From assembly GCA_964432945.1 (NCBI GenBank), contig CAYSPO010000001.1, forward strand, positions 21,506-85,505: a DNA stretch of 64,000 bases, written 5' to 3'. Shown one piece after another: positions 3,684 to 28,925 of this stretch. Below the pieces are notes generated by a model that saw only the letters and a list, made by a program, of their open reading frames with translations, was not told where the DNA came from and did no database searches. This DNA is from an uncultured Peptoniphilaceae bacterium. Its GTDB lineage: Bacteria; Bacillota; Clostridia; Tissierellales; Peptoniphilaceae. Position 1 is the first letter of the stretch. Each line of letters starts with the position of its first letter. Position numbers and translations under genes: made by a program.

Positions 3684-4426
3684 TGAATAAACTTTATATT
3701 ATAGGTATAGGACCAGGTGGAGCTGGCTCTATGACTTTAGATGCTATTGATAAGATTAAAGAATCGGATGCTATTGTTGCTTATGGCCCATATTTAGATT
3801 ATATAAAAGAAGCTATTGATATTGAAGGAAAAGAAACTTTTACTTCAGGAATGACTAAAGAAATAGAAAGATGTCAAAAGGCAATAGATTTAGCTTTAGA
3901 AGGAAAAACAACTTCTATTCTTTCTACAGGAGATGCTGGTCAATATGGAATGGCAGGTCCCATTTATGAGCTTTTAATTGAACAAGGAAAGATTAATAAA
4001 GTGTGTGTAGAGGTTATTCCTGGTGTTGGAGCTATATATGCAGCAGCTGCAGAAGTTGGAGCTCCGATAATGATGGACCTTGCTTTAATTAGTCTTTCTG
4101 ATTTATTAGTTCCTTGGGAAACAATTGAAAAAAGATTAGATAAGGCAGCAGATGCTGATTTTGTTATAGGAATATACAACCCTAGATCTAAAACTAGAGT
4201 TAAGCATTTACCGAGAGCTTTAGAGATAATAGGGAAATATAGAGATAAGGAAACTCCTGTAGCTTTAGTAAGAAATGCAGGAAGAGATGATACTTATATT
4301 GAATTAAGTAATTTAAATGATTTTGACTATGAAAAAGCTGATATGAAATCCTTGGTTATAGTGGGTAACTCTACAAGTATGATAAAAGAGGGACTGATGA
4401 TTACCAAAAGGGGATACAATATTTGA
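3683..4426 (+). CDS. cbiH: cobalt-precorrin-3B C17-methyltransferase CbiH
   Basis: Has YIIGIGPGG, STGDAGQYGMAG and PGVGAIYAAAA motifs. ATG overlaps the cbiG stop. Confidence 0.9.
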   Translation: MNKLYIIGIGPGGAGSMTLDAIDKIKESDAIVAYGPYLDYIKEAIDIEGKETFTSGMTKEIERCQKAIDLALEGKTTSILSTGDAGQYGMAGPIYELLIEQGKINKVCVEVIPGVGAIYAAAAEVGAPIMMDLALISLSDLLVPWETIEKRLDKAADADFVIGIYNPRSKTRVKHLPRALEIIGKYRDKETPVALVRNAGRDDTYIELSNLNDFDYEKADMKSLVIVGNSTSMIKEGLMITKRGYNI

Positions 4427-5154
4427 TTTGGTTAATTGGCGGGACTAGTGAAGCTAAACAATTTGTGGATAAGTTTCCTATGTCAGAAAAATTAATAGTA
4501 AGTGTTACTACAAACTATGGAGCGTCTTTAATTAAAGACTGTAAAGTAAAAATATCTGCTATGGATTACGAAGAAATGAAAGAATTTGTAGAGGAAAATA
4601 ACATCAGTGGAATCATAGATATGTCCCATCCATTTGCAGAAATAGTAACAAGTAATGCTCAAAAAATATCTAAGGACATGAAAATTAAATACCTTAGATA
4701 CATAAGACCTATTACCTCTAAGGCTGATTATAGTTTTAAAGAAATGAAAGAATTTGAAAAGTTTTCTAAAGAGAATAAAGGTACATATTTCATTACCGTT
4801 GGAAGTAAAATGATTGGGGAACTTGAAAGTATAAAAAACAAGAATAGATTTATTTATAGGATTCTTCCAATGACTAAAAGTATAGAAATTTGTAGAAAAT
4901 ATAATATTAAATTAGAGGATATTGTTTGTATGAAAGGACCTTTTTCTTTAGATATGAATATAGCTTTTCTAAAAGAATTTTCTGCTGATTATATGCTTAT
5001 GAAAGATAGTGGAGAAGCTGGAGGAATGGAAGCTAAGTTAGGAGCTTGTGAAAAATTAGGAATAAATTCTTTAGCTTTTACCAGAAAATCAGAAGAAGGA
5101 ATACAAGATATAGATGAACTTATATACAAAGCTATTGTTCTATTAGGAGAATAG
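4423..5154 (+). CDS. cbiJ: cobalt-precorrin-6A reductase CbiJ
   Basis: TTG start overlaps the cbiH stop (TTGA). Has N-terminal LIGGTSEA and MKDSGEAGG motifs of the CobK/CbiJ family. Confidence 0.8.
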   Translation: MIWLIGGTSEAKQFVDKFPMSEKLIVSVTTNYGASLIKDCKVKISAMDYEEMKEFVEENNISGIIDMSHPFAEIVTSNAQKISKDMKIKYLRYIRPITSKADYSFKEMKEFEKFSKENKGTYFITVGSKMIGELESIKNKNRFIYRILPMTKSIEICRKYNIKLEDIVCMKGPFSLDMNIAFLKEFSADYMLMKDSGEAGGMEAKLGACEKLGINSLAFTRKSEEGIQDIDELIYKAIVLLGE

Positions 5155-5158
5155 GAAA

Positions 5159-5836
5159 ATGTATATTCCAATAATGTTAAAAGTAAAAAATAAAAAAGTT
5201 AAAGTTTTTGGGGGAGGGCCTGTTGCTTATAGAAAATCTAAGAAATTTTTAGATGAAGGAGCAGAAGTAACAGTTATAAGCCCTGATTTTATAAAAAAAT
5301 TTGAAGATATAAAAGATTTTTGTATAAAAAGACCTTACAAGAAAAGTGATTTACTAGATATAGATATAGTTATAGCTGCCACTAATGATAGAAATATAAA
5401 CTTAGAAATTTCATCTTACTGCGAGGATAAAGGTATTCTTGTTAATGTTGCAGACTCTAAAGAAGAGTCCAGCTTCATACTACCTTCAAAAATAGATACA
5501 GGTGGTTTAGTAATTTCTTTTTCTACATTAGGAAAATATCCAGCATTATCTAGGTCTTTAAGAATGGAATTAGAAGATAAGTTTTCAATTTATGATAAAG
5601 AATATTTAGATTTATTAGAATTATATAGGCAAAAAATATTAAAAGAAAACCCTGAAAATAAGCTGGAGCTTCTTAGACAGGCACTAACTTATAGTAAGGG
5701 GGAAATTGAAAATTTGCTATATTTAATATTTTATAATATAGATGGGAATGAGGTTAGAATCCTCAGCAGCCCCGCTACTGTATTACTGAGCAAACCTAGA
5801 TATGCCACTGAAAGGGAAGGCCTAGGTAAGCTTTGA
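5159..5836 (+). CDS. precorrin-2 dehydrogenase / sirohydrochlorin ferrochelatase (SirC / CysG N-terminal type)
   Basis: Rossmann motif VFGGGPVAYRKSKKFLDEGAEVTVISP and AATNDRNIN resemble the siroheme-synthase N-terminal domain. The last ~30 codons read into the riboswitch aptamer. Confidence 0.7.
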   Translation: MYIPIMLKVKNKKVKVFGGGPVAYRKSKKFLDEGAEVTVISPDFIKKFEDIKDFCIKRPYKKSDLLDIDIVIAATNDRNINLEISSYCEDKGILVNVADSKEESSFILPSKIDTGGLVISFSTLGKYPALSRSLRMELEDKFSIYDKEYLDLLELYRQKILKENPENKLELLRQALTYSKGEIENLLYLIFYNIDGNEVRILSSPATVLLSKPRYATEREGLGKL

Positions 5837-5870
5837 CGTTAAGCCAGGACACCAGAATTCTTCGGAGGGA
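5735..5870 (+). promoter_or_regulatory. cobalamin (B12) riboswitch upstream of cbiMNQO
   Basis: Conserved blocks are present: GGGAAUGAGGUUAGAAUCCUC, GCCCCGCUACUGUA, GCCACUG, GGGAAGGC, and the B12 box AAGCCAGGACACC. The downstream CUUCUCCU (5882..5889) could pair with the cbiM RBS AGGAGGG (5901..5907). Confidence 0.85.
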
Positions 5871-5911
5871 AGTATATTTACTTCTCCTAGCAAAAATAAT
5901 AGGAGGGAAAA

Positions 5912-6637
5912 ATGAAGAAAAAAGCTAAAAAATTATTAAAAGTTTATGTGTTATTAGCTGTCATTTTATTGCCAACAATGGCAGGAGCTATGCACATAAT
6001 GGAAGGATATCTACCAAAGGTACATTCATTAATTTGGTCATTGATTTCACTTCCATTTGTAATCTACGGTGCAAAGAGTGCATCAAAAGTAACAAAGGAG
6101 TACCCTGATAAAAAGCTATTACTAGCAATGGCAGGTGCTTTTACATTTTTATTATCATCATTAAAAATACCATCAGTAACAGGATCTTGTTCTCATCCAA
6201 CTGGTATAGGTTTTGGAGCAATTATATTTGGGCCAGGACCGATGTTTATAATTGGAGTTATTGTTTTATTATTCCAAGCTTTGTTATTAGCTCATGGAGG
6301 AATTACAACTCTTGGAGCAAATACTTTTTCAATGGCTATTGTTGGTTCTCTAGTTTCTTATGGACTATTTAAGTCACTGAAAAAAACAGGAATAAATGAA
6401 TATGTAAATGTATTTATTGCTGTAACTCTAGGAAATCTTGCAACTTATGCAACAACTGCTCTGCAATTAGCAATAGCTTTTCCAGCAGGAAATTTTGCAG
6501 GTGAATTAGTTAAGTACCTTTCAATATTTGCTCTAACCCAAGTTCCTATTGCAATAGTAGAAGGTTTATTATCTACTTTAATTTATGAAAGAGTTAAGAA
6601 ATATGACGGTGGAGGTTTATTATATGAAAACATCTAG
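5912..6637 (+). CDS. cbiM: cobalt ECF transporter substrate-capture component CbiM
   Basis: After the signal-like N-terminus there is an MHIMEGYLP motif. Polytopic membrane protein, followed by cbiN/Q/O. Confidence 0.9.
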   Translation: MKKKAKKLLKVYVLLAVILLPTMAGAMHIMEGYLPKVHSLIWSLISLPFVIYGAKSASKVTKEYPDKKLLLAMAGAFTFLLSSLKIPSVTGSCSHPTGIGFGAIIFGPGPMFIIGVIVLLFQALLLAHGGITTLGANTFSMAIVGSLVSYGLFKSLKKTGINEYVNVFIAVTLGNLATYATTALQLAIAFPAGNFAGELVKYLSIFALTQVPIAIVEGLLSTLIYERVKKYDGGGLLYENI

Positions 6638-6908
6638 TAAGGTAATAATTATAATTTTAATCCTAGCAATTATAATTGCTCCGCTTTATCTGCTTCCAGA
6701 TGCAGATTTCGAAGGAGCAGATGATGAAGGTATGGACACTCTTGCTGAAAATAACCCAGAATATGAAGCATGGGCAGAACCATTTATTGAACCAGCTAGT
6801 GGGGAAATAGAATCACTTTTATTTGCCAGCCAAGCAGCTCTAGGAGCATCTGTAATTGGATATTATTTTGGAGTAAGTAAAGGTAAAAGAAATGTTGAAG
6901 ATAGATAA
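6624..6908 (+). CDS. cbiN: cobalt transport protein CbiN
   Basis: Small two-TM protein. I prefer ATG 6624, preceded by GGAGG, over the track start 6585. Confidence 0.8.
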   Translation: MKTSSKVIIIILILAIIIAPLYLLPDADFEGADDEGMDTLAENNPEYEAWAEPFIEPASGEIESLLFASQAALGASVIGYYFGVSKGKRNVEDR

Positions 6909-7569
6909 ACTTGCCTATGAGAATAATTTATTTAAAATTAGGCCAAGTTTAAAAGTGGGCATGAGTATGTTATTACTCATGCTCTCTATTATTATAGACA
7001 ATAATTTTATTAAGTTTAATATAGTATTATTAAATATTTTAGTTTGTATAGTTTTTGCTAAAATTCCTTTTTTAGAATATTTGAAGTTATATAGAATACC
7101 TTTAGTTTTTCTTATATTAGGTCTGGTTAGTATGATTTTATCAATAAGTAAAGACAACAGGGACTATATATTTTCCTTTAATGTTTTTAATTTTTATCTT
7201 GGAGTCTCTGAGAATTCTCTGATTAATGGATTTAACACTTTTATTAGGTCTATTTCAGCATTAAGTTCTACCTATTCTTTGATATTAACTACTCCAATTA
7301 ACCAGCTTATTAATTTTCTGAAATCCATAAAATTTCCTATTATAATTACTGAACAGCTACTGCTTATATACAGATTTATAAATGTATTTTTAGAAGAACT
7401 AGAAAAAATGAAAATAGCAATGGAGTTAAAGCAAGGATATGGTAAAAAGAAAAATTGGATAAAAAGTCTTTCTCTTATAGGAAGTTCATTGTTTATAAAA
7501 ATAATGAATTCTTTTAAGGATTATTCTTTAACACTTGAACTTAAACACTTTAATGGAGACTTTTATTAG
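6892..7569 (+). CDS. cbiQ: cobalt ECF transporter T component CbiQ
   Basis: Polytopic membrane protein of about 225 aa between cbiN and the ECF ATPase. Overlaps the cbiN end. Confidence 0.8.
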   Translation: MLKIDKLAYENNLFKIRPSLKVGMSMLLLMLSIIIDNNFIKFNIVLLNILVCIVFAKIPFLEYLKLYRIPLVFLILGLVSMILSISKDNRDYIFSFNVFNFYLGVSENSLINGFNTFIRSISALSSTYSLILTTPINQLINFLKSIKFPIIITEQLLLIYRFINVFLEELEKMKIAMELKQGYGKKKNWIKSLSLIGSSLFIKIMNSFKDYSLTLELKHFNGDFY

Positions 7570-7577
7570 GTGATTTT

Positions 7578-8393
7578 ATGATAGAGATTAAAAACTTGTG
7601 CTTTAAATATGACAATGGATATGAAGCTTTAAAAAATATTAATATGGAAATTAAAGAAGGACAAATTATCGGACTTATTGGAGAGAACGGATCTGGTAAA
7701 TCAACTCTTTTCCTTTCTATCCTAGGAATTAACAAAAAATCTCAAGGTGATATTTTATTCAGAGGTGAAAGTATCTCTTACAAGAAAACTTTTATGAGAG
7801 ATTATAGAAAAAAAGTAAATATGGTATTGCAAGATCCAGACAAACAAATATTTTATTCTGATGTCTATTCAGATATAGCCTTTGGACTTAAAAATTTAGG
7901 ATTAAGCGATAATGAGATTAAAAAAAGAGTAAATTCATCTTTGGAAGATTTAGAAATAAGTAATTTGAAAGATAAGGCTGTTCATTACTTAAGCTATGGC
8001 CAAAAGAAACGGCTTACGATTGCAGGGGTATTAGCTATGAATCCAGAGCTTATTCTATTAGATGAGCCTACAGCAGGCCTAGACCCTAGGCTTACCAAAC
8101 AGATGGTTAAAACCATTAAAAAATTAAAAGATAATAGTAAAACTATTTTAGTTTCATCTCATGATATGGATTTTATTTATGAAGTTTGTGACTATATATA
8201 TGTTATCAATAAAGGACAAATTATTAGTAATGGAAAGCCAGAAGAAGTTTTTATAGATGAAGAAAAAATTATATCTGCAGGTTTAAGTTTACCAATGTTA
8301 GTTAAACTCCATGTTAATACAAATTTACCTCTTTTTAAAGATGAAGATAGACTTTATAAATATATAAATAAATATAAAAATAATAATCAGTAA
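7578..8393 (+). CDS. cbiO: cobalt ECF transporter ATPase CbiO
   Basis: Walker A GENGSGKST, signature LSYGQKKR, Walker B LILLDEPTAGLD. Confidence 0.85.
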   Translation: MIEIKNLCFKYDNGYEALKNINMEIKEGQIIGLIGENGSGKSTLFLSILGINKKSQGDILFRGESISYKKTFMRDYRKKVNMVLQDPDKQIFYSDVYSDIAFGLKNLGLSDNEIKKRVNSSLEDLEISNLKDKAVHYLSYGQKKRLTIAGVLAMNPELILLDEPTAGLDPRLTKQMVKTIKKLKDNSKTILVSSHDMDFIYEVCDYIYVINKGQIISNGKPEEVFIDEEKIISAGLSLPMLVKLHVNTNLPLFKDEDRLYKYINKYKNNNQ

Positions 8394-8665: not shown

Positions 8666-9832
8666 ATGAAAAAAGGATTAATATTAACTTTATTATCATT
8701 TGTTTTAGTTTTTTCAGTAGGTTGTAATCAAACAACAGAAACTGAAGCTACAACTGAAGGAAATAAAGAAGTAGCAGAAACTACCGAAGCTACAACTGAA
8801 GAAGAAAAAGTAACACAAACTGAAGAAGTTTCAGAAACAGAAGAATCTGAAGAAGAAGAAACTGAAAAAGTTTGGCCAGAAGAATTAAAAGGTAAACTAA
8901 CTTTTGAAGTGGATCTTTCAAAACACGAATCAGATAAACCAGTTCGCCTATGGCTACCAGCAGCTCAGTCAGATGAATATCAAGAAATTTCTAATGTTGA
9001 AGTAGTAGTTGATGAACAAACAGCTACAACACAAACAAATAAAGATGACTTAGGAAATGAAATGATATACATTGAATTTTCTCCTGAAGCTAAAGAACGT
9101 AAAGCAATATATTCTTTTGACCTAGTTAGAAAAGAAATCAAAGCTCCTAAATTTGCTGAAGAAGAAGATTTTGATGCAGCAGAATATGAAGAATATCTTT
9201 CATCATCTAACCTAATGCCTTTAGATGGTAAAATTAAAGAACTTTCTGATGAAATAACAAAAGGAAAAGAAACAGTAGAAGATAAGGCTTTAGCTATCCA
9301 CGAATGGATTTTTGAAAATATGGTTCGTAATGATGATGTAACAGGATGTGGTCTAGGAGATGTGGAAAGCACATTAGTATCTTTAGATGGTAAATGTACT
9401 GATATTGGATCAGTTAATATAGCATTATTAAGAGCTGCAGGAATACCAGCAAGAGAAATATTTGGTGTTCGTTTGAAAGACGAATCAGGCGTTTCTGATG
9501 TTACTAAAAGCCAACACTGTTGGGTTGAATATTATCAACCAGGAACAGGCTGGGTAACAACAGATGTTGCAGATGTTCTAAGAGCTGTTCTATATGAAGA
9601 TTTAGAAAAAGATGGAGATAAAGCACAAGAAATAAAAGAATTCTACTTTGGAAATCTAGATGCTGTTCGTGTTGGATTAACAACAGGAAGAGATTTAACT
9701 TTAGTTCCAGAACAAGAAGCTCCATTTGTAAATCAATTTGGCTACCCATATGCTGAAGTTGATGGAGAACCTCTTGATTTCTATAATTCTGAAGAATTCG
9801 CATACAGCATAACTTTTGAAAAAGCTGAATAA
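8666..9832 (+). CDS. transglutaminase-like lipoprotein
   Basis: ATG 8666 gives a signal peptide plus lipobox (LVFSVGC). An acidic T/E-rich linker follows. Cys-His-Asp core GKCTDIGS...QHCWVEYY...GWVTTD matches the transglutaminase-like fold. Confidence 0.7.
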   Translation: MKKGLILTLLSFVLVFSVGCNQTTETEATTEGNKEVAETTEATTEEEKVTQTEEVSETEESEEEETEKVWPEELKGKLTFEVDLSKHESDKPVRLWLPAAQSDEYQEISNVEVVVDEQTATTQTNKDDLGNEMIYIEFSPEAKERKAIYSFDLVRKEIKAPKFAEEEDFDAAEYEEYLSSSNLMPLDGKIKELSDEITKGKETVEDKALAIHEWIFENMVRNDDVTGCGLGDVESTLVSLDGKCTDIGSVNIALLRAAGIPAREIFGVRLKDESGVSDVTKSQHCWVEYYQPGTGWVTTDVADVLRAVLYEDLEKDGDKAQEIKEFYFGNLDAVRVGLTTGRDLTLVPEQEAPFVNQFGYPYAEVDGEPLDFYNSEEFAYSITFEKAE

Positions 9833-9855
9833 TCCTAAAAAAATCTAAAATATTA

Positions 9856-9889
9856 AACCACCTAGATTTAGGTGGTTTTTCTTTTTTTA
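9856..9889 (+). terminator. rho-independent terminator
   Basis: AACCACCTA-GATT-TAGGTGGTT stem-loop followed by TTTTCTTTTTTT. Confidence 0.7.
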
Positions 9890-10005
9890 TAAGTAAATCT
9901 GAATATTAAATAAAATTATAATTTTTTATAATATTTTGCTTATAAAAAGAAGAATTTTTGAGCTTTTGACTTTCAAATAAGAAATAAAATCTCAGAGATA
10001 TTTAT

Positions 10006-10034
10006 TTGATTAATTATAAATTAGTATATATAAT
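10006..10034 (+). promoter_or_regulatory. candidate sigma-A promoter for the first Cys-Sec-COOH gene
   Basis: TTGATT, 17 nt, TATAAT, about 38 nt upstream of ATG 10073. AT-rich context makes chance matches common. Confidence 0.4.
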
Positions 10035-10072
10035 CAATTGAAAATAAATAATCTTAAAAAAAGGTGTGAAAT

Positions 10073-10576
10073 ATGGATCTTAAAAAGCTAAAAATTAAAA
10101 ATATATTACTAGTTATATTTGCTATAGGAGTGTTATATATAGGATTTACCAGCTTTAATACTGGAACAGAAGATGACGTAGTGGATATAGGTGTATCTGA
10201 AGATAATGAATTATTGAAGTATTTTAGAAAAAGCTATCCTGATTATGAGGTTCTCAAAGCTGGTGAAGAAGATGTAGATGCAAATGGATTTAATGATCTA
10301 GTTGTTATTTATAATATTTCAAGAGATAAGCTAGGTTACCCTACAAAAAACGAAATGTTAGTTATATTAAATAATAATGGTGTTTATGAAATGACTCAAT
10401 CTACAAGAGCACCTATTGAAAAACATGTAATACAGTTTCAAAACATTGAAAATGATGATAGGTATGAAATAACAGTCTCTGGTTCAAAAAGAGGGCAATA
10501 TGGTTTTGGTATATATGAAATAAAAGACAATGCTCTTGTGAATATATATGGTGAAGGAATGGAAAAATGCTGATAG
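10073..10576 (+). CDS. membrane-anchored protein ending in Cys-Sec-COOH (TGA 10571..10573 read as selenocysteine, real stop TAG 10574..10576)
   Basis: Has an N-terminal TM helix. It is a paralogue of 15355..15897, and both end ...GEGM(E/D)xC with the identical hexamer context TGC-TGA-TAG. A hairpin follows in the 3' UTR. This may correspond to the family I recall being named 'Cys-Cys-COOH (seleno)protein SaoC'; I cannot verify that here. Confidence 0.7.
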
Positions 10577-10585
10577 AAAATATGT

Positions 10586-10602
10586 ATGCTTAGGATAAGC
10601 AT
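10586..10602 (+). promoter_or_regulatory. candidate SECIS hairpin (3' of TGA 10571)
   Basis: ATGCTTA-GGA-TAAGCAT, starting 15 nt after the TGA. The apical loop contains GG. Confidence 0.5.
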
Positions 10603-10650
10603 GAATAAGAAAACTTTATATAAGAATAAAAAATTAAAATGATACAATCG

Positions 10651-10681
10651 TTGGGTTAAAGTCGACTTTAATGTTTATACT
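10651..10681 (+). promoter_or_regulatory. MerR-type promoter/operator P1
   Basis: TTGGGT (-35), a 19-nt spacer, then TATACT (-10). The perfect 16-bp palindrome TTAAAGTCGACTTTAA (10656..10671) lies inside the spacer. Confidence 0.6.
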
Positions 10682-10696
10682 TAGAAGGAGGTGAAT

Positions 10697-11248
10697 ATGA
10701 TGAAAATCAAAGATGTAAGTGAATTGACAGGTTTAGCTGGATCCACTATAAGATATTATGATAGCTTAGGACTATTAGGTCCTATAGATAGATTATCAAA
10801 TAATTATAGAAAATTCAATAAACATGATGTAGATATACTTAATTTTATCTCTGAGTCTAGAGATCTTGGTTTTTCTCTTGCCGAAGTTAAAGAAATTTTG
10901 CAAATGAAAAATAGCGGTAAAGAGCCATGTGCGTATGTTGAGAATAAGATTAAGGAAAAAATTACCTTAATAGATGAACATATAAAAGATTTGGAAAAGA
11001 AAAGAGTTGAACTTAACAAGCACTTAGAAATTGGACATTCTGTTTGTGGTTGTCATGGTAATGTTTGTCATTATATTGAAGGCTTAGTTGGAGTAGAAGA
11101 GGAGGATTCATCGACTTGTTCCTGTGGGTGTGAAGAAGAAATAGAGAAATCATCAGGATGTTCTTGTGGATGTGAAGAAGAAACTGAGTTAGACAATTCT
11201 TGTTCATCAAAGAATTCTTCTAAAAACAAGGGTTGTAGCTGCTGTTAG
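10697..11248 (+). CDS. MerR-family metal-responsive transcriptional regulator with a Cys-rich C-terminal tail
   Basis: HTH MKIKDVSELTGLAGSTIRYYDSLGLL. Cys residues in EPCAY and VCGCHGNVCH sit at positions comparable to the three metal-ligand cysteines of MerR. The tail has SCGCEEE repeats and ends GCSCC. Start is ATG 10697 or 10700, after AAGGAGG. Confidence 0.85.
   Translation: MMKIKDVSELTGLAGSTIRYYDSLGLLGPIDRLSNNYRKFNKHDVDILNFISESRDLGFSLAEVKEILQMKNSGKEPCAYVENKIKEKITLIDEHIKDLEKKRVELNKHLEIGHSVCGCHGNVCHYIEGLVGVEEEDSSTCSCGCEEEIEKSSGCSCGCEEETELDNSCSSKNSSKNKGCSCC
11117..11188 (+). repeat. tandem 42-nt-period coding repeat (CSCGCEEExE twice) in the regulator tail
   Basis: TGTTCCTGTGGGTGTGAAGAAGAAATAGAG (11117..11146) and TGTTCTTGTGGATGTGAAGAAGAAACTGAG (11159..11188). 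Confidence 0.8.
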
Positions 11249-11279
11249 GCTGAATTACTTATCTTACCTATAGAAAGTT

Positions 11280-12080
11280 GTGATTATGGGAAAAATAAAG
11301 ATAGAGAATTTCAGAAATTTTATCAATTTATTTTTAATAGCTATAATTATTGGACTATCTATAATAATTTTTAAAAATAATAATCCAAAAATAAAAGAAA
11401 ATAATAATAAGCCTGTAATCAGAATTGGTGCAGGTGATGATATATCAGGAATTGTTCTTGACTATATGCAGTCAGAAACTAATGAATTTAAGTTAGAACC
11501 TTATTTTATCAAAGATTGCTGAGCGACTACTTCTCAATGGGCATTGAGTAGTAATGCGTATTCTATGGCAATTGTTTGTAAAGATGCTGCAAAAAAGTAT
11601 ATAGACACAAGTCCTGATTTTGAAATTATAGGACCTGTAATTATGAATTCAGACATAGTTTTAGAGTCGACTAGAGATATTACAAGTGTAGGTATTACAA
11701 GTAAGAAAAGTTATCACAGAGATTTTGTTCGTGAATTATATGGTGAAGATGTTGAAATTATTGAGCTTATGCCTCAAAGTTTGCCATATGTTTATGAAAC
11801 AGCAAGAGTCGATGCAATAATAACTGATATAACAAAATTTACGAGTAACATAAAAGGAGAAGTGAAAAGTCCTAGTCAGGAAGATTATGTAACAAATATT
11901 TTAATAGCAAGAAGTGATTTTATTGGAACTAAAGAATATAAAGATTTTGTTAATAAATATAATGAAATCGTAAATGAACTAAATTCTGAAGGTCTTCCTA
12001 TTGATTATATAGAGAAAAAAACAAATTTAGATGAAGGGAGTTATGAGTATTGGAAAGTAAAGCTACTAACAATAAAGTAG
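11280..12080 (+). CDS. membrane-anchored ABC substrate-binding-like selenoprotein (Cys-Sec at TGC-TGA 11517..11522)
   Basis: Track ORFs 11280..11522 and 11544..12080 are in the same frame, separated only by the TGA and 7 sense codons. Joined length is about 266 aa with an N-terminal TM anchor. It lies directly upstream of the cognate permease and ATPase. A hairpin follows the TGA. Confidence 0.65.
11528..11553 (+). promoter_or_regulatory. candidate SECIS hairpin (3' of TGA 11520)
   Basis: TACT/AGTA plus CTCAAT/ATTGAG stems with one T-T mismatch. Apical loop is GGGC. Confidence 0.5.
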
Positions 12081-12847
12081 TCTCATTTTTTCAAGATGAG
12101 ACTACCAAACATACATTAGCAAGATTACTTACATATGGAACACTCATTTTAGTTTGGCATCTTTTAGCCACTTATATCGATATACCACTTGTTTTGCCCG
12201 CTCCATTAGATACATTAAGGGCTTTTATAGACAGTATCATCGATATTAAAGTTATGAGCAATGTTGGTATAACTTTAATGAGAGTTCTAAAGGGATGGGG
12301 ATTAGCCTTAGTCTTTGGAATACCTATCGGTATTGCAATGGGATTATCTCCTATTTTTGACAGTGTTTTTGGAGGTATAGTTAACTCTTTAAGACAAGTG
12401 CCAATGATGGCTTGGGTACCTCTTTCAATTATTTGGTTTGGAATTGGTGATGGTCCAACGTTATTTATGATTGCACTAAATGGAGTTTTCCAAATCATTA
12501 TGAATACATCTTCAGGTGTGGCTAATATTTCTGAAGATTATTATAATGCAGCCAAAAGCATGGGTGCTAGTAAACTAAGTATCTTTAAGAACATTATTAT
12601 CCCAGCAGCTCTACCAGATATGTTAACTGGAGCAAGATTAGCCATTGGAGCTGGCTGGATGTCTGTTATCTGAGCGGAGTTCATTGCGACAAGTGCCGGG
12701 CTCGGCTACGAAATGATAGAAGCACAATCTATGATGCAAACTAATAAACTTATAGCGTTAATGTTTTTAGCAGCATTTATAGGGTTTTTAATTGACAATG
12801 TAATACAATTTCTAAATAAGAAATTAACAAAATGGAGATATGTATAG
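12050..12847 (+). CDS. ABC transporter permease (NitT/TauT-SsuC type) with in-frame TGA 12671..12673 read as selenocysteine
   Basis: TTG start 9 nt after GAAGGGAG. After the TGA, 57 further sense codons (AEFIATSAGLGYEMIEAQ...LMFLAAFIGFLIDNVIQ...) run to TAG 12845..12847. They align residue-for-residue with the C-terminus of the paralogue at 30608..31453 (VAAEMLPGSMSGLGYLIAHA...IICIGLIGALFDAIYS). The next gene starts at 12848. Confidence 0.75.
12693..12709 (+). promoter_or_regulatory. candidate SECIS hairpin (3' of TGA 12671)
   Basis: A locally GC-rich hairpin, GTGCCG-GGCT-CGGC(T)AC, in an otherwise AT-rich gene. The loop contains GG. Confidence 0.45.
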
Positions 12848-13633
12848 ATGAAATTAGTTGTTGATAATTTATGTAAATCTTATTCGAATTCAGGAGAAGA
12901 TAATCATGTTTTAGAAAATATTAGCTTTTCAGTTGAAGAAGGAGAGGTTGTAACCCTTTTAGGTCCATCAGGATGTGGAAAGACAACAACTTTAACTATT
13001 ATAGCAGGTTTCAATGATTATGATTCAGGTCAAGTTTTATTAAATGGAGAATTAACAGACAAACCAGGTCCTAATAAGGGTTTTATGTTTCAAAACTATG
13101 CATTATTTCCTTGGATGACGGTAGAAGAAAATATTCGCTTTCCAATGAAGCAATTAAAATATGATAAAGAAAAAATCGATAAAAGAACTAAGTATTTATT
13201 AGATCTGGCTAGGTTGACTAAATACAAGGATTATTACCCTCATCAAATATCTGGGGGTATGAAACAAAGAAATTCTTTGGTGAGAGCATTAGCTCTTGAG
13301 CCAGAAATTTTATTGATGGATGAACCTCTTGGGGCTTTAGATATTGAAATGAGACAAAGTCTTCAAGATCAATTATTAGAAATATTTGATGATCTAAAAT
13401 TAACAGTAATAATAGTAACCCATGATGTGGAAGAAGCAATTTACTTGAGCGATAGAGTAATACTTATGTCCACAAATAAGGGTGAGATTATTTTGAACGA
13501 AAAAATAACTATGCCTCACCCAAGAAAAAGAAAAGATCCTCAATACCAACAATATGTAGATTTGTTATCAGAAAAGTTTATAGAAGCAAGTAAAAAAGGA
13601 GCACAAGCTCAAGGAAGTAGTGAAGATGAATAG
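12848..13633 (+). CDS. ABC transporter ATP-binding protein (NitT/TauT family)
   Basis: Walker A GPSGCGKTT, signature ISGGMKQR, Walker B LLMDEPLGALD. Confidence 0.9.
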   Translation: MKLVVDNLCKSYSNSGEDNHVLENISFSVEEGEVVTLLGPSGCGKTTTLTIIAGFNDYDSGQVLLNGELTDKPGPNKGFMFQNYALFPWMTVEENIRFPMKQLKYDKEKIDKRTKYLLDLARLTKYKDYYPHQISGGMKQRNSLVRALALEPEILLMDEPLGALDIEMRQSLQDQLLEIFDDLKLTVIIVTHDVEEAIYLSDRVILMSTNKGEIILNEKITMPHPRKRKDPQYQQYVDLLSEKFIEASKKGAQAQGSSEDE

Positions 13634-14270
13634 TAAAATAGATATTTCAGAAGTTCTTACACATGAAGATAATTTAACTTCAGATGAAAAGTTTTATAGA
13701 TTAAAAATTGTAGAAAAACTGGCAACAGAAGATAGACCTATTAGATTAAATGAGCTTCCAGAAATAAGCTCTCAAATGTATGAAATTCTCCACGACAAAG
13801 GAGCTATTGTATTAGATGAAAATAAAGAAAATATAATGTATGCTTACCCTGTTTCAGGGCCGCATACAAACCATGAAATTCATTTGGCAGATGGCAGGGT
13901 CTTTCATTCTATGTGTGCTATAGACTCTCTTGGCTCTACTTTTACCTTTGGACAAGATTTAACTATAAAATCTCAGTGTTCTACCAGTGGAAAAGAAGTT
14001 ATTGTAGAAATAGAGAATGGAAAAATTAAATCTACAAATGCTGATGATATTTATGCTATTCATGTTGATTTAAATGCATTTGAAGAATGGTCAGCTAGCT
14101 GCTGAAATGTTATGAATTTTTTCCGTGGGAAAGAAAACATGATTGAATATTACGAAGGAAATGAACTTGACGAAAAGACTAGCTTTGGTCTTGATTTAGA
14201 TACAGCATTTAAAGTAGGAAAAAAAGTTTTTAGTGTTGAACATACCTTATATGAATTTGTAGTTAAGTAA
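13620..14270 (+). CDS. organomercurial-lyase (MerB) family selenoprotein (Cys-Sec at TGC-TGA 14100..14105)
   Basis: FHSMCAIDSL matches MerB YAWCALDTL (Cys96/Asp99). SASC-U-NVMNFF matches MerB SFCCHVHFF (Cys159/Cys160). Reading through the TGA adds 54 codons to TAA 14268..14270, giving 216 aa, which is MerB-like length. Start is GTG 13620 or ATG 13626. Confidence 0.75.
14112..14140 (+). promoter_or_regulatory. candidate SECIS hairpin (3' of TGA 14103)
   Basis: ATG..TTTTTTCC-GTG-GGAAAGAA..CAT imperfect hairpin with a G-rich apex. Confidence 0.4.
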
Positions 14271-14281
14271 GGAGGGATTGG

Positions 14282-15352
14282 ATGTTTTTGTCATATATTA
14301 AAGAAATTTTACTCGCTTCATTAGATTTACTTAACGGTACATCCGCTTGGCTTATTGCAAGTTACCTTTTAGCAGGACTTACAAGAGATATAATTTCACC
14401 AGCTAGGCTGCAAAAGTCTTTAGGGAATACAAAAATATCCTCTATTATAAAATCTACATTACTAAGTATGTGTTTACCTGTATGTAGCTGTGGATCAGTT
14501 CCCTTAGGTATAAGTATGTATGAATCAGGGGCTTATGTCGGGCCAACCTTAGCATTTTTTGCAGGCTCTCCTATCTTAAATCCAGCTTCAATTATTTTGA
14601 GCTTTGGTTTGTTAGGTAAAGAAATCACTCTTATAAATATTGGAGCAGGTTTAATTTTACCTATTATAATCGGAGTTTTGGGAAATAAATTAGCTGGCGA
14701 TGAGCTTATGGATACCAAAATTCAAAAAGAGATAGAAAATATTAAAATTGAAAAAGATGAAAGATCTATTTTCTCAAAAATGAAATCAGGACTTAAATGG
14801 GTAAATAGTGAATTTGCTGTTAATTCTAGCAAATATATAGTTTTTGGTATGCTTTTTGGAGGGTTTTTATTAGTATCTTTTCCTCAAGCATTTATTCAAA
14901 AATATCTCGGTGATCCGGGAGTTATGACACTTTGGAATGTTGCACTTCTGGCTACTCTTATGTATGTATGTGCAGTAGGGCATATTCCTTTTATTGCAGC
15001 TTTGATAGCTAGTGGGGCATCCCCTGGAGCAGCTATAACATTTTTAATGGCAGGAGCAGCAACAAATATTCCAGAAATTATAAGTATAGGATCAATGATT
15101 GGTAAAAAAACAGCAGCCATCTATACTATTGTAATTAGTTCATTTTCTATGCTTGTAGGTATGATTACAAACAAGTTATTAATGCCTGGGTTTCAAAGGC
15201 AAATTGAATATGATGAAGTTGATAAAGCTATAAATACTGCTAATAGTCTTTTATTAAGTTTTCCTGATTGGGTTAAAAACTTATGTACTGCTATTGTAAT
15301 AATTTATTTTCTAAAGGCAATGTATAATTCTTTAATTAGAGATAGGATTTAA
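14282..15352 (+). CDS. polytopic permease, DUF318/ArsP-like family, CxC motif
   Basis: About 10 TM segments in a two-repeat architecture. Motif LPVCSCGSVPLG. Paralogue of 18162..19256 and more distantly of 46081..47121 (FCSCSSIP). Good RBS AGGAGGG. Confidence 0.8.
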   Translation: MFLSYIKEILLASLDLLNGTSAWLIASYLLAGLTRDIISPARLQKSLGNTKISSIIKSTLLSMCLPVCSCGSVPLGISMYESGAYVGPTLAFFAGSPILNPASIILSFGLLGKEITLINIGAGLILPIIIGVLGNKLAGDELMDTKIQKEIENIKIEKDERSIFSKMKSGLKWVNSEFAVNSSKYIVFGMLFGGFLLVSFPQAFIQKYLGDPGVMTLWNVALLATLMYVCAVGHIPFIAALIASGASPGAAITFLMAGAATNIPEIISIGSMIGKKTAAIYTIVISSFSMLVGMITNKLLMPGFQRQIEYDEVDKAINTANSLLLSFPDWVKNLCTAIVIIYFLKAMYNSLIRDRI

Positions 15353-15354
15353 CT

Positions 15355-15897
15355 ATGATTAATCTAGATAGGGAAAAGAGAATTATAAATATTTATTATA
15401 AGGAAAAGCTAGTTTTAACAATAGACGCAAGCTTAATGACTAAATTTTTTCTTACAGTAATAGTTATTCTAGTTGGTTATATAGGCTATATTCAAAACGC
15501 TAGTTTTAAAGAAGCAGATTTTGGAGTTGAAAAAGATAATCCACTTTTACTTTATTTTGAAGAAGAATTTCCTAATAATCCTGTTATCAAATGTAAATTA
15601 GGTGATGTAAATAACGATGGTAGAGATGATTTAATAGTTATTTACCAAATGCAGTTTCAAGATGGTAATGAATTGCGAGTGGTCTTTGATACAGATAATG
15701 GATATGAAGTTTCTAATCAAAATAGAGCTCCTTATGAAAACCAAACTATTGAATTAATTGATATAGATAATTCTCCTCCTATGGAATTTATTGCATCTGG
15801 CTCTAAAAGAGGAAGATATGGCTATGAGATTTATAGGGTTGATAATTCTACTCAGTTAGCCAGCGTCTTTGGAGAGGGAATGGATGTGTGCTGATAG
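15355..15897 (+). CDS. membrane-anchored protein ending in Cys-Sec-COOH (TGA 15892..15894 read as Sec, stop TAG 15895..15897)
   Basis: Paralogue of 10073..10576. They share blocks DVNNDGRDDLIVIY / DANGFNDLVVIY, SGSKRG(R/Q)YG and GEGM. Same TGC-TGA-TAG ending, with a downstream hairpin. Confidence 0.7.
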
Positions 15898-15906
15898 GTT
15901 TATAAA

Positions 15907-15922
15907 AAGTTCAGGTGAGCTT
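15907..15922 (+). promoter_or_regulatory. candidate SECIS hairpin (3' of TGA 15892)
   Basis: AAGTTC-AGGT-GAGCTT hairpin 13 nt after the TGA. The loop contains GGU. Confidence 0.45.
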
Positions 15923-15970
15923 ATATATAAGAAAATCTTATCCATTATAAATTAGCATAAGTAAATATTA

Positions 15971-16003
15971 TTAGACTATAAAGACGACTTTATAGTTTAT
16001 AAT
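15971..16003 (+). promoter_or_regulatory. second MerR-type operator/promoter P2
   Basis: ACTATAAAGACGACTTTATAGT (15975..15996) has core TAAAGACGACTTTA, matching 13 of 14 positions of the P1 core TAAAGTCGACTTTA. Its centre lies at the same distance from a -10 hexamer (TATAAT 15998..16003) as in P1. It could also fold as an RNA hairpin. Confidence 0.55.
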
Positions 16004-16075
16004 AATATTATGATATTGAGTATATATATATTCAACAAATAATGTTATACATAGGTAAAACTTTTAGGAGGAAAT

Positions 16076-17329
16076 ATGAAAAAGAAAGTATTAGCAAGCA
16101 TATTAGCTTGTACTCTTATTCTTTCATCTTTTACTGCTTGTAAAAACTCTGGAACATCATCTGTAGAAAAAATCGAATATGATCCTGTAGCAGAGCTTGA
16201 AAATTTCGAATTAAGAGAAATACCAGAAGCAGATAAAGATTTCAAAATTGAGATGGGCTATAATAACTGTGACCATATGGTTGGAGCTATTATAGGGGAA
16301 GAAGCAGGAATTTATGACGCTTTAGACTTAAATGTAAATGTAACTCAAACTAACAATACAAACATAGCTCAAGCCATGTCAACTAATGAAATGCAAGTTG
16401 GTTATATGGGAATTGACGGAGCAATAAGATCTCACAATGAAGGAGCACCTCTATTTATGAGTGCTGCAAATCATATTGGTGGATCAAGATACTTAGTAGC
16501 TTCTAATGATATTAAAAAGCCAGAAGATTTAATTGGTAAAACATTAGGAATTTCTCAAGATACAGCGAATAACCCAGAATGGTTACAATGGGCAAAAGAA
16601 TTAGGAATTCCAGCAGAAGCTGAAAACTATGAAATAGTAGAAATAGCACAAAAAGATGGACCTTTAGCTTTAAAAGCAGGACAAATAGATGCATTCGCTT
16701 GCTGTGATCCGTTTGCTTCACAATCAGAGCTTATGGAAGTTGGCCACATTATGGCAATAGGTTGGGGAACTGATGTAGAACAAGCTGAAAGTAATGATGC
16801 ATGGGGCATGTGCTGTATACATGCTATGAACCAAAACTTTGAAAAAGAACATCCAGAACTAGCTCAAAGACTTATGGTAGCTCATATATTAGCAGTTCAA
16901 TACTTATATGAACATCCATACAATGCGGCTATGATGTTTGCTGAAGGGTTTGGGACAACACCAGAAGTTGGTTTATTAACAGTATATATGAAGACTGTTG
17001 CTGAAGGTAGAACAATAACTTGGGAATTTGATGAAGAAAACCTTAAAAACTTCGTAAAAGAGTATGAAGATTGGAATGTTGATCCAGAGAAAATTCCTGA
17101 TTTAAGTAAAATAGAATCATTTATGGGTAAAAATATGCTTGAAGAAAGCAATATTATGCACTTTGAGGATTACCTAGAAGAATCAAATTTAGATGAAGTA
17201 TTCCCACTTGGAATGCCATTTGAAGATTGGTTAGCGAAAGCTAAAGCAATAGATGGTATTGATAATGAAATGGGTAATGATATTAAAGTTCCAGAAATTT
17301 ACCAAGAACAAGGATACTCAGCTAACTAA
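16076..17329 (+). CDS. ABC substrate-binding lipoprotein (NMT1/SsuA-like, NitT/TauT family)
   Basis: Signal peptide plus lipobox SSFTAC. About 417 aa and SsuA/NMT1-like (...GQIDAFACCDPFASQ...). Strong RBS AGGAGG. Confidence 0.75.
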   Translation: MKKKVLASILACTLILSSFTACKNSGTSSVEKIEYDPVAELENFELREIPEADKDFKIEMGYNNCDHMVGAIIGEEAGIYDALDLNVNVTQTNNTNIAQAMSTNEMQVGYMGIDGAIRSHNEGAPLFMSAANHIGGSRYLVASNDIKKPEDLIGKTLGISQDTANNPEWLQWAKELGIPAEAENYEIVEIAQKDGPLALKAGQIDAFACCDPFASQSELMEVGHIMAIGWGTDVEQAESNDAWGMCCIHAMNQNFEKEHPELAQRLMVAHILAVQYLYEHPYNAAMMFAEGFGTTPEVGLLTVYMKTVAEGRTITWEFDEENLKNFVKEYEDWNVDPEKIPDLSKIESFMGKNMLEESNIMHFEDYLEESNLDEVFPLGMPFEDWLAKAKAIDGIDNEMGNDIKVPEIYQEQGYSAN

Positions 17330-17340
17330 AAAATTAAAAT

Positions 17341-17369
17341 AATAGGATCATTTATGATCCTATTATTTT
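17341..17369 (+). terminator. rho-independent terminator
   Basis: AATAGGATCA-TTTA-TGATCCTATT followed by ATTTTG. Confidence 0.6.
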
Positions 17370-17466
17370 GTTATTATCAATTAGTATAAGAAATTTTTAT
17401 GATAAAGAATGATTATGCTTAATGAAATTAAACTATGCTAAAATATAGTAAGTAAGAGGAGTGTGT

Positions 17467-17730
17467 ATGAGAGATAAGGTTTTAGTGGAATTTATCAACA
17501 CTTGACCTAGTTGTGATTCACTTGGCAGGTCGGTTCAAGAAGTAGCATCACAATTTGGAGATAAGGTCGAGGTAAAGCTTTATTTCGCAGGAAAAGATGT
17601 TGAATATATTGCCAAATATGGAATGATATATTCAGGGACGATGATAATTAATGAAACTAAAAAAGTACAAAGACTTAGCAGATCTAATATTGAAAAAGAA
17701 ATTAGGGCTGCAGTAGAAGAAATTCAGTAA
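17467..17730 (+). CDS. small thioredoxin-fold selenoprotein with UxxC motif (TGA 17503..17505); not in the ORF track
   Basis: ATG 17467 follows AGAGGAG. Translation is MRDKVLVEFINT-U-PSCDSLGRSVQEVASQFGDKVEVKLYF...GTMIINE...EEIQ, 87 aa, stop TAA 17728..17730. It aligns with the CxxC protein at 45731..46069 (ILGSGCAKCKQLE...). A long hairpin follows the TGA. Confidence 0.7.
17511..17553 (+). promoter_or_regulatory. candidate SECIS hairpin (3' of TGA 17503)
   Basis: Outer stem TTGTGAT/ATCACAA and inner stem CTTG/CAAG. The apical region is GCAGGUCGGUU, which contains GGUC. Confidence 0.5.
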
Positions 17731-17747
17731 AATATTGGAGGTATTTA

Positions 17748-18080
17748 ATGAGAGTTGCTTACGTAATGGGTTCAGAAAATGCTAGAAAGACAGTTAGAGA
17801 TATGATAGTTCCACAAATGGAAGCAAGGGAACATGTTGCAGAAGTTGTAGCAATGTTTTTTACATATGACACAACTTTTATGCTGTTAAAAGATACTGAT
17901 CTTGGAAATAGACTTCAAAAGTTAGCTGATGAAAAAGGCTTGATGATAGTTGCTTGTGACCAATGTGTTATTGAAAGGGAAATTGATGATAAGCTTATTC
18001 CTGCAGCAAGTTTAGGATGCTTTCCAATGGTTTATGGAGCATTAAATAGTGCAGATATAGACCAAGTTATATCCATCTAA
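17748..18080 (+). CDS. DsrE/DsrF-like sulfur(selenium)-relay family protein
   Basis: 110 aa with a DsrE-like pattern (MRVAYVM..., IVACDQCV active-site-like Cys). RBS GGAGG. Confidence 0.6.
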   Translation: MRVAYVMGSENARKTVRDMIVPQMEAREHVAEVVAMFFTYDTTFMLLKDTDLGNRLQKLADEKGLMIVACDQCVIEREIDDKLIPAASLGCFPMVYGALNSADIDQVISI

Positions 18081-18098
18081 TCGGATTAATGTACTTGA

Positions 18099-18140
18099 AA
18101 TAAGCATCAATCTTAAATTAGATTGATGCTTATTATTTTT
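18099..18140 (+). terminator. rho-independent terminator
   Basis: 15-bp stem AATAAGCATCAATCT / AGATTGATGCTTATT followed by ATTTTT. Confidence 0.7.
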
Positions 18141-18161
18141 GCGAAATATGAGAGGTGAGAA

Positions 18162-19256
18162 GTGAATTTTATTAGAGAAGTAATTTTAACAGCATTAGAA
18201 CTATTAAACGGAACATCAACATGGATAGTAGTAAGTTACATAATAGCTGGACTACTTCATGATGTTATATCACCAGTAAGGTTTCAAAAAGGCTTAGGTA
18301 ATACTAAATTTTCTTCTATTGTAAAGGCAACCTTATCTGCTATGATTATTCCTATATGTAGCTGTGGATCTGTTCCTTTAGGAATCAGCTTATATTATTC
18401 GGGAGCTTATCTAGGGCCAACCCTAGCATTCTTAGCATCGAGCCCATTTTTAAATCCAGCAGCAATTATTATGAGTCTAGGACTTTTAGGTTGGGAGATA
18501 ACTTTAATTAATATAATAGCAGGGCTTTTCCTTCCTCTTTTAATAGGGGTAATTGGAAATAAAATAGGTGGAGATGAATTAAGAAAGCCTATGCTAGAAG
18601 AAGAAATAGTTAATATTTCTTTAGAAGAATCAGACGATAGAAGTCTTGTTGAAAAATTTAAATCAGGATTAATTTGGGTTTCTAATGATCTTGCATTAAC
18701 TTTAAGTAAATATACAGTCTTGGGAATGCTTTTAGGAGGATTGATATTATCTATTTTTCCAGAAAGCTTTATTCAAGAATATTTAGGTAATCCTTCATTA
18801 TTATCCTTGATGAATGTAGCAGTAATGGGAACGATAATGTATGTTTGTGCAGTAGGACATATTCCATTTATTGCAGCTTTAATAGTAAGCGGAGCATCTC
18901 CAGGCTCAGCTATTACTTTTTTAATGGCAGGAGCAGCAACAAATGTTCCAGAATTATATAGTATATATAAAATGATAGGAAAGAAAACAGCAGCTATATA
19001 TGGATTTATTGTAACAATTTATGCTTTTATTATCGGATATATCACAAACTTAATTTTAATGCCAGGATTTAAGCCAGTAGCTGATTTTTCTCAAGCAAAT
19101 AAATCGATTGAAATTGCAAACAGATTTCAATTTACAATTCCAGATCCAATTAACTGGATTTGTACAGTAATATTATTAATATTTTTTATAAAAAGTATTC
19201 GTCCATTTTTAGAAGATTTTGCTTACAAAATAAAAGGATTTTTTATAGAAGATTAA
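18162..19256 (+). CDS. polytopic permease, DUF318/ArsP-like family, CxC motif (paralogue 2)
   Basis: GTG start after GAGAGGTGAG. Motif IPICSCGSVPLG. Collinear and highly similar to 14282..15352. Confidence 0.8.
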   Translation: MNFIREVILTALELLNGTSTWIVVSYIIAGLLHDVISPVRFQKGLGNTKFSSIVKATLSAMIIPICSCGSVPLGISLYYSGAYLGPTLAFLASSPFLNPAAIIMSLGLLGWEITLINIIAGLFLPLLIGVIGNKIGGDELRKPMLEEEIVNISLEESDDRSLVEKFKSGLIWVSNDLALTLSKYTVLGMLLGGLILSIFPESFIQEYLGNPSLLSLMNVAVMGTIMYVCAVGHIPFIAALIVSGASPGSAITFLMAGAATNVPELYSIYKMIGKKTAAIYGFIVTIYAFIIGYITNLILMPGFKPVADFSQANKSIEIANRFQFTIPDPINWICTVILLIFFIKSIRPFLEDFAYKIKGFFIED

Positions 19257-28922: not shown

Positions 28923-28925
28923 AAA

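Follow-up and report, generated by a model that had tools for sequence, protein, structure and literature searches.

A SaoB-type substrate-binding protein gene with a probable Cys-Sec pair in a SAO locus with six in-frame TGA codons from an uncultured Peptoniphilaceae bacterium

Main

Here, we analyse saoB, a gene in a 64,000-nt stretch of DNA (hereafter the window) from an uncultured Peptoniphilaceae bacterium (GenBank assembly GCA_964432945.1, contig CAYSPO010000001.1, positions 21,506 to 85,505 of the forward strand). Two open reading frames (ORFs), 11280-11522 and 11544-12080, are in all likelihood one read-through gene that encodes a substrate-binding protein with a pair of cysteine and selenocysteine (Sec, U). 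The finding is already known, and the window holds a further member of a described family. Haft & Gwadz named the locus SAO (Selenocysteine-Assisted Organometallic) and described SaoB as a protein that is split in databases, carries a CU motif and is a selenoprotein in ~60% of its members (bioRxiv 10.1101/2022.07.06.499078). A 2026 review lists SaoB (motif CUxxT), SaoP, SaoL, SaoT, SaoC and SaoX, with roles that "require further investigation" (PMC13188914). What the window contributes is a locus unusually rich in Sec (six UGA codons), a MerR-type sensor with its operator, and a pointer to a regulator in related loci that may itself contain selenocysteine.

Reading frame and identity of saoB

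The two ORFs share a frame and a single TGA (11520-11522) lies between them. Direct reading of the junction gives ...LEPYFIKDC-TGA-ATTSQWALSSNAY, or FIKDC-U-ATTSQWALS with Sec at the TGA, and the codon taken as the start of the second ORF (11544) is the TTG for Leu in the Q-W-A-L of this peptide. The read-through gene and its candidate Sec insertion sequence (SECIS) are:

11286-12080, + strand: saoB, probable selenoprotein substrate-binding protein of 264 aa, from its match to NF040727, the family survey and hydropathy; alternative GTG start at 11280
11528-11553, + strand: candidate SECIS hairpin of saoB with loop GGGC, within the codons of the conserved S-Q-W-A-L-S peptide

With this start the Sec codon is residue U79. 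The frame has no other stops or frameshifts, and after the TGA it stays open for 185 more codons (p ~2e-7 by our own arithmetic, for which 30% GC gives stops at ~8% of random codons). With U entered as C, the joined protein scores 214.2 bits (cut-off 140) against the NCBIfam model NF040727, "SBP_SaoB_CU", in full 'ABC transporter substrate-binding (seleno)protein SaoB', where ABC stands for ATP-binding cassette. The match is one stretch across the Sec site (residues 17-257 on profile positions 3-252 of 262), and the joined protein matches no Pfam model at E <= 0.01 and no NCBIfam model besides that of SaoB. The initial annotation had proposed two ORFs in one frame, a CU junction, a hairpin with a GGGC loop and a single substrate-binding protein with a Cys-Sec pair; direct reading bears out the first three, and the profile match across the TGA supports the last.

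An anchoring transmembrane helix in place of a lipobox, which had also been proposed, is confirmed as well. Hydropathy peaks at residues 11-29 (NFINLFLIAIIIGLSIIIF), a hydrophobic 19-mer with a mean Kyte-Doolittle value of 2.6 and no Cys. No lipobox was found by inspection of sequence and hydropathy, the first Cys being residue 78, and a lipobox-like motif is present in just 19 of 100 full-length homologues. The helix is probably uncleaved and holds the protein at the membrane. Directly 3' of saoB are a permease (12050-12847) and an ATPase (12848-13633), so the position upstream of a transporter was described correctly, with saoP and saoA at 12050-13633.

Conservation of the Cys-Sec pair

Among 1.84 billion representative proteins, a profile search gave 217 relatives, and the best 150 of the 217 were aligned together with four earlier matches. 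Among these 154 sequences, 105 are full-length with D-C-C, 42 are C-terminal fragments that begin just past the Sec column and one is an N-terminal fragment that ends in Cys; the pair reads CW in four and WW in one, and one has a gap at the Sec column. Five positions, D77, C78, C/U79, C98 and D181, never vary among 101 full-length sequences (100 representatives and the window protein), and Cys and Sec forms alternate at position 79 across the family, an alternation for which the initial annotation had suggested looking. Full-length D-C-C forms run across the junction, and the two halves are therefore not separate families; nor is the pair unconserved, the other contrary outcome that had been named.

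The TGA stands at the invariant-Cys column in at least eight divergent loci, and in ~30% of family representatives. In five further Sec-type loci (L007-L011) the sequence is DC-TGA followed by x-x-x-x-Q-W-A-[L/M]-S, and a split permease and a split MerB adjoin each SaoB. A search for related loci based on SaoE gave a sole match, in Tissierella creatinini, on a contig with SaoL, SaoT, SaoE and SaoC and without SaoB.

Five public sequences have W at the Sec position (P0003, P0005, P0008, P0012 and P0022), for which the gene caller had applied genetic code 4. The DNA was checked for two of them and holds TGA in both, as TGC TGA in one locus (L005) and GAT TGA TGA in another (L004). W residues in public SaoB sequences offer a cheap flag for hidden selenoproteins. 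The second of these loci, a single 1.4-kb contig, reads ...SIKD-TGA-TGA-ASTAQWALS (786-791) and keeps the SECIS stem; its SaoB may be a Sec-Sec (U-U) variant, and a sequencing error is possible too.

TGA codons and hairpins in the SAO locus

The complete SAO locus spans 10073-19256 in the order saoC, merR-like, saoB, saoP, saoA, saoL, saoE, saoC, saoX, saoT, saoD and saoE. Besides saoB and the regulator, which is treated below, its genes are:

10073-10576, + strand: saoC copy 1, Cys-Cys-COOH family (NF040734, 136.7 bits, cut-off 80)
12050-12847, + strand: saoP, ABC permease (NF040733 'ABC_perm_U', 375.9 bits, cut-off 295)
12848-13633, + strand: saoA, ABC ATPase (NF040729, 355 bits, just below the cut-off of 360)
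13626-14270, + strand: saoL, MerB-like lyase (NF040728, 145.8 bits, cut-off 140)
14282-15352, + strand: saoE, first copy, efflux permease of the ArsP_1 / SO_0444 type with a CSC motif (NF040736, 485 bits, cut-off 325)
15355-15897, + strand: saoC copy 2 (NF040734, 145.3 bits, cut-off 80)
16076-17329, + strand: saoX, all-Cys lipoprotein substrate-binding protein of the NMT1/SsuA type (NF040735, 459.9 bits, cut-off 300; Pfam NMT1 and NMT1_2)
17467-17730, + strand: saoT, small thioredoxin-like selenoprotein, MRDKVLVEFINT-U-PSC..., Sec codon 17503-17505 (direct reading)
17748-18080, + strand: saoD, DsrE-related (NF040732, 161.9 bits, just below the cut-off of 169)
18162-19256, + strand: saoE, second paralogue (NF040736, 506 bits, cut-off 325)

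The identification of saoT comes from reading alone, and its U-x-x-C motif agrees with the SaoT of the preprint. The score of SaoX is in line with the earlier description of 16076-17329 as an all-Cys lipoprotein binding protein.

When the entire window was read with TGA as sense, just three ORFs of 100 codons or more had a mid-frame TGA, all of them genes of the SAO locus (at 11520, 12671 and 14103), and a fourth mid-gene TGA lies in the short ORF of saoT. Both saoC copies terminate in Cys-TGA-TAG (TGA at 10571 and 15892), which brings the SAO TGAs to six. Ordinary genes of the window terminate with TGA at their expected C-termini, e.g. the Opp permease and RACo. At least three SAO TGAs besides that of saoB align with Cys in homologues (saoL, saoT and saoC). 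SaoP, SaoL and SaoT all belong to families for which selenoproteins have been reported before. The Sec codon of saoP (12671-12673) reads ...GWMSVI-U-AEFIATSAGLGY and that of saoL (14103-14105) ...WSASC-U-NVMNFF, with a hairpin at 14117-14135 and a Pfam MerB match that spans the Sec site. The two saoC copies end ...GMEKC-TGA(10571-10573)-TAG, with the hairpin UAUGCUUA-GGA-UAAGCAUG at 10585-10603, and ...GMDVC-TGA(15892-15894)-TAG, with the hairpin AAGUUC-AGGU-GAGCUU at 15907-15922; each end is thus followed 14-15 nt downstream by a hairpin with a GG-containing loop, which implies a candidate C-terminal Cys-Sec in both copies.

The saoB hairpin has an inner stem CUCAAU/AUUGAG (11533-38 / 11543-48) around the loop GGGC (11539-42) and an outer stem UACU/AGUA. 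It begins 8 nt downstream of the UGA, and its loop begins 19 nt past the U of the UGA. Taken alone, it is weak evidence for a SECIS. We counted hairpins that start 16-30 nt past a TGA, have an uninterrupted stem of 6 bp or more and carry GG in a loop of 3-6 nt. They follow 19 of the 2159 TGA triplets in the window (0.9%) compared with four of the six SAO TGAs. Across Sec-type saoB genes, the 6 bp around GGGC are completely formed in six of eight, and in one (L010) an A-U pair has become G-C through two synonymous, compensatory changes; in three Cys-type genes that encode the same peptide, 5, 3 and 3 of the 6 pairs form. The stronger pairing in Sec-type genes points to possible selection at the RNA level, in a small sample. 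In saoP the GC-rich hairpin GCCG-GGCU-CGGC starts 24 nt past the UGA, has its loop at +28, and lies (12692-12709) in the codons AGT GCC GGG CTC GGC TAC (S-A-G-L-G-Y); such GC-rich codons in a 30% GC genome likewise suggest RNA-level selection.

Predicted structure

A single-sequence AlphaFold prediction of the Cys-type homologue P0004 had a predicted local distance difference test (pLDDT) of 37.8 and was replaced by an AF2 model from a 102-sequence alignment, built on P0003, a homologue that is 55% identical to the window protein and has W in place of U (pLDDT 90.2, predicted template modelling score 0.81). The model opens with a single long helix (residues 4-33). The loop that joins strand 68-74 to helix 80-87 holds D76-C77-(U)78, strand 93-97 ends in C97 just before helix 98-107, and strand 177-181 ends in D181. 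The initial annotation had placed the CU pair in a loop before a helix, and in this homologue, with W for Sec, it is such a strand-to-helix loop. The cleft of proteins with the type-II binding-protein fold is bordered by strand C-termini and helix N-termini.

Foldseek against the PDB ranked 3hn0, SsuA (3ksx, 2x26), 3un6, TauA (6ssy), MetQ and Thi5 at the top, with E values from 2e-11 to 1e-9 and template modelling scores of 0.55-0.67. SaoB is on this model predicted to have a two-lobed ABC substrate-binding (type II periplasmic binding protein) fold. The SaoB profile gave marginal matches to PDB sequences (E >= 0.01), and the hidden Markov models (HMMs) of the SsuA/NMT1 families (Pfam PF09084 and PF13379; TIGR01728) gave no significant SaoB match. 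The earlier label 'SsuA/NMT1-type' is therefore right at the level of fold and wrong as family membership. SaoB is like the SsuA, TauA, NMT1/THI5 and MetQ proteins in its two lobes, and their permeases are TauC/SsuC-like, as is SaoP. Their ligands (2x26, 3ksx, 6ssy, 3hn0 and 3un6) are sulfonates, pyrimidines and methionine, bound non-covalently. None of the matched PDB entries is described as a selenoprotein, and we know of none among them with an Asp-Cys-Sec / Cys / Asp constellation.

Decoding of the TGA, mechanism and alternatives

Two other readings of the saoB codon were weighed. The TGA could be a true stop, in a disrupted gene or between two small ORFs, with the hairpin a by-product of the QWAL peptide. 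Public gene callers do give fragments of 78 and 171 aa, and the hairpin lies within conserved codons and has an energy that is not significant alone. We rejected this pseudogene or split-gene reading as very improbable on the family survey and the further Sec-type loci: the same TGA recurs at the invariant-Cys column of divergent loci, saoB has no second lesion, the locus has five further position-specific TGAs, and Sec-type genes form more of the stem pairs than Cys-type genes do and include one compensatory change. The codon could instead be read as Trp or Gly under genetic code 4 or 25, as the W in some public predictions and the 30% GC of the genome might suggest. However, mid-gene TGAs are confined to SAO genes and ordinary genes end at TGA, and a reassigned code is therefore no explanation; the saoB codon aligns with an invariant Cys in 105 representatives and never with Trp or Gly. 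This possibility was also rejected, and we consider it the least probable of all.

Several results weigh against our own reading. The 54-nt segment of the saoB hairpin folds no better than its shuffles (z = -0.09), and an Rfam scan of 9500-19500 at E <= 10 gave chance matches and no SECIS family. In two of the eight Sec-type genes the stem pairs at 4 of 6 positions, and the Cys-type control is a small sample of three genes. No selA, selB or selD was found among the scanned ORFs of the window (~20 ORFs were unscanned), and ARAGORN found no tRNA gene, hence no tRNA-Sec, in the 64 kb. The scores of saoA and saoD fall short of their cut-offs, the structure is that of a homologue with W at the Sec position, and in the literature searched we found no experimental work on the SAO system.

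Overall, the best explanation, which we hold with good confidence, is that SaoB with Sec is the dedicated binding protein of the SAO ABC importer and may capture its substrate with soft ligands. In the proposed mechanism, the UGA at 11520 would be decoded as selenocysteine with the help of the SECIS hairpin, and SaoB would serve the SaoP2-SaoA2 ABC importer. The D77-C78-U79 loop, C98, which ends the next strand, and D181 from the other part of the protein would together form a soft thiolate/selenolate site facing the inter-lobe cleft. The preprint reports an AlphaFold model in which the S/Se atoms of three conserved Cys/Sec residues converge in a putative pocket, and its authors hypothesize that an organometallic compound is transported and cleaved (bioRxiv 10.1101/2022.07.06.499078). 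The site may capture a thiophilic metal(loid) or organometal by Se/S-metal coordination, in place of ordinary non-covalent contacts, and SaoB may hand the ligand to a selenocysteine pair at the gate of SaoP; the cytoplasmic MerB-like SaoL, which also has a CU pair, would then cleave the carbon-metal bond and SaoE would export the metal. A MerR-type soft-metal sensor directly upstream would switch the operon on in this lineage. Covalent or coordinative binding by SaoB is here a hypothesis, the same as the one already published, and for metal(loid) coordination in particular we regard the chances as even.

The main rival for the chemistry is selenenylsulfide capture. The Cys-Sec pair could be a redox or chalcogen-transfer centre through which SaoB takes up, by Se-S exchange, a substrate that contains a thiol, a persulfide or selenium, with the SAO system trafficking S/Se species. 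CU pairs are able to form selenenylsulfides, which is established chemistry. SaoD is DsrE-related and SaoT is thioredoxin-like with its U-x-x-C motif, partners that are also compatible with sulfur or selenium trafficking and to that extent count against metal coordination; a PatB C-S lyase, a rhodanese-domain protein and a second SsuA-type transporter are nearby. However, SaoL is a MerB homologue whose CU aligns with the metal-binding Cys pair of MerB (also in bioRxiv 10.1101/2022.07.06.499078), SaoE is related to the SO_0444 Cu/Zn efflux proteins, and the MerR-type sensor of the operon carries a Cys/His metal loop and a tail that resembles metallothionein. We consider selenenylsulfide capture unlikely, and soft-ligand capture by SaoB remains our preferred explanation.

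Selenocysteine is highly unusual in the binding protein and the gate of a transporter, and its presence there implies that anaerobes, including Clostridioides difficile, take up a soft metal(loid) or organometal by coordination. This point is already public through the Haft & Gwadz preprint, the NCBIfam models and the 2026 review, and the window is another instance of it.

Comparison with known systems

The closest known protein is SaoB of C. difficile (WP_239591066.1). Both belong to the NF040727 family, share the D-C-U motif and a third conserved Cys, are encoded upstream of a Sec permease, an ATPase and the MerB-like SaoL, and are split into two ORFs in databases. In contrast, the host here is uncultured, the nearest named relatives of the neighbouring genes are from Tissierella, and saoC and saoE are duplicated in the window. 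Cys-Sec SaoC was reported in 3 of 52 species in the preprint, compared with two copies in the window alone (bioRxiv 10.1101/2022.07.06.499078).

SaoB and SaoX are both extracytoplasmic type-II binding proteins with conserved Cys motifs (Cys or Cys-Cys in SaoX), which in SaoX are predicted to lie in the cleft (bioRxiv 10.1101/2022.07.06.499078), and SaoX presumably serves the same permease. They differ in that SaoX is a 417-aa lipoprotein and NMT1/SsuA by HMM, whereas SaoB has 264 aa, is membrane-anchored and lacks a Pfam match; hhalign of the SaoB family against SaoX gave a weak match (probability 7%). The MerP/MerT/MerB system is similar in that paired soft ligands hand a thiophilic metal from the outside to a cytoplasmic enzyme, of which SaoL is a homologue. 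MerP, unlike SaoB, is a small ferredoxin-like protein and no ABC binding protein. No selenocysteine is known in mer systems, and SAO loci are argued to lie outside mobile resistance islands (bioRxiv 10.1101/2022.07.06.499078).

A MerR-type regulator and its operators

The window operon is preceded by a MerR-type regulator and a conserved operator. Both go beyond the preprint, in which no mention is made of MerR or of a regulator (bioRxiv 10.1101/2022.07.06.499078). The features are:

10651-10681, + strand: MerR-type promoter with -35 TTGGGT, 19-nt spacer and -10 TATACT (direct reading)
10697-11248, + strand: MerR-family metal-sensor-like regulator, Cys form (Pfam MerR_1 and MerR-DNA-bind)
15978-16003, + strand: second operator ATAAAGACGACTTTAT (15978-15993) upstream of saoX, with -10 TATAAT at 15998-16003

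The regulator is similar to CueR, CadR and ZntR, with scores below the cut-offs of all three NCBIfam models. It has the loop ...VCGCHGNVCHYIEG and a Cys-rich acidic tail (CSCGCEEE twice ... GCSCC), and a Cys at what we take to be the position that distinguishes divalent-metal sensors in the MerR family. The promoter of merR-saoB contains a perfect 16-bp palindrome, TTAAAGTCGACTTTAA (10656-10671). The operator core TAAAG-N4-CTTTA lies exactly 5 nt before the -10 box both there and at saoX (15979). It occurs twice in the 64 kb, a count that is not significant (14 of 100 shuffles give at least two). The two-site arrangement at merR and saoX recurs in a second lineage (L015-L017) and the merR site also in L007; the promoter architecture of merR is the same in L007 and L015, and SAO loci without the regulator gene are also without the operator motif. 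The earlier assignment of saoX to the saoB regulon gains support from the operator shared here and in L015-L017. The operator and the MerR regulator together fit an operon that may respond to a metal(loid), and they provide an experimental handle for finding the inducing metal(loid), and hence the ligand of SaoB.

In two related loci the regulator gene itself is interrupted by a TGA (L007, 2258-2710; L015, 5958-6440), with the sequence ...VCG-TGA-[H/Q]G[D/E][V/I]CHYIEG.... In the alignment this TGA falls on the second Cys of C-G-C in the window protein, homology resumes after it (HGDVCHYIEG or QGEICHYIEG), and a hairpin, CAUCGA-AGGU[A/G]-UCGAUG, begins 23 nt past the UGA and is absent from the Cys-type gene of the window. 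A protein of a third cluster (P0160) stops at the same position of the regulator. A metagenome scan for the regulator motif found nothing, and a relaxed second scan found Cys forms only. The regulator of L007, L015-17 and P0160 is a candidate selenocysteine-containing MerR transcription factor, whose Sec would lie in the metal-binding loop (C-G-U-[H/Q]-G-x-x-C-H-Y), a type listed neither in bioRxiv 10.1101/2022.07.06.499078 nor in PMC13188914. We tentatively propose, as a possibility that we hold below even chances, that the SAO importer of this lineage is a metal-induced 'selenolate relay', in which a dedicated MerR soft-metal sensor would turn on merR-saoB...saoC and saoX through TAAAG-N4-CTTTA and would be of the Sec type in sister lineages. 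If true, and taken with the possible U-U SaoB of L004, every step in the handling of one thiophilic metal(loid), from sensing and capture to gating and cleavage, would use Se ligands.

Neighbouring genes

A double-cubane-cluster anaerobic reductase (26423-27595, - strand; NF040772, 490 bits) adjoins the SAO locus, in agreement with an association between SAO and double-cubane proteins reported in bioRxiv 10.1101/2022.07.06.499078. An HGD-D family protein (32316-33485, - strand; Pfam PF06050) is also near the locus. The 218-aa methyltransferase at 25437-26093 matches just the first 214 of 338 positions of the model for the double-selenoprotein MduS, and no hidden Sec-containing C-terminal part follows it, the frame being closed by many stops.

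Sulfur-related genes include a PatB-family C-S lyase followed by a second SsuA-family binding protein, permease and ATPase at 27744-32232, and a rhodanese-domain cell-wall protein at 40240-41979; their presence at these sites therefore places sulfur-compound handling near the SAO locus.

Corrinoid genes lie on both sides. The upstream part (1-8393), judged from the contig L001, has cobalamin biosynthesis genes and a CbiMNQO cobalt transporter, of which the CbiO-like ATPase (7578-8393) is the sole upstream cobalt gene read in the window itself. Downstream (44515-56924) are five methyltransferases of the URO-D/MtaA type, a corrinoid protein, a RACo corrinoid activator, CobW and a MutL-like protein. 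Whether by chance or with some meaning, methyl transfer that depends on corrinoids is thus encoded beside a putative organometal system. A third permease of the ArsP_1 family (46081-47121, - strand), outside the SAO locus, adjoins the methyltransferase cluster.

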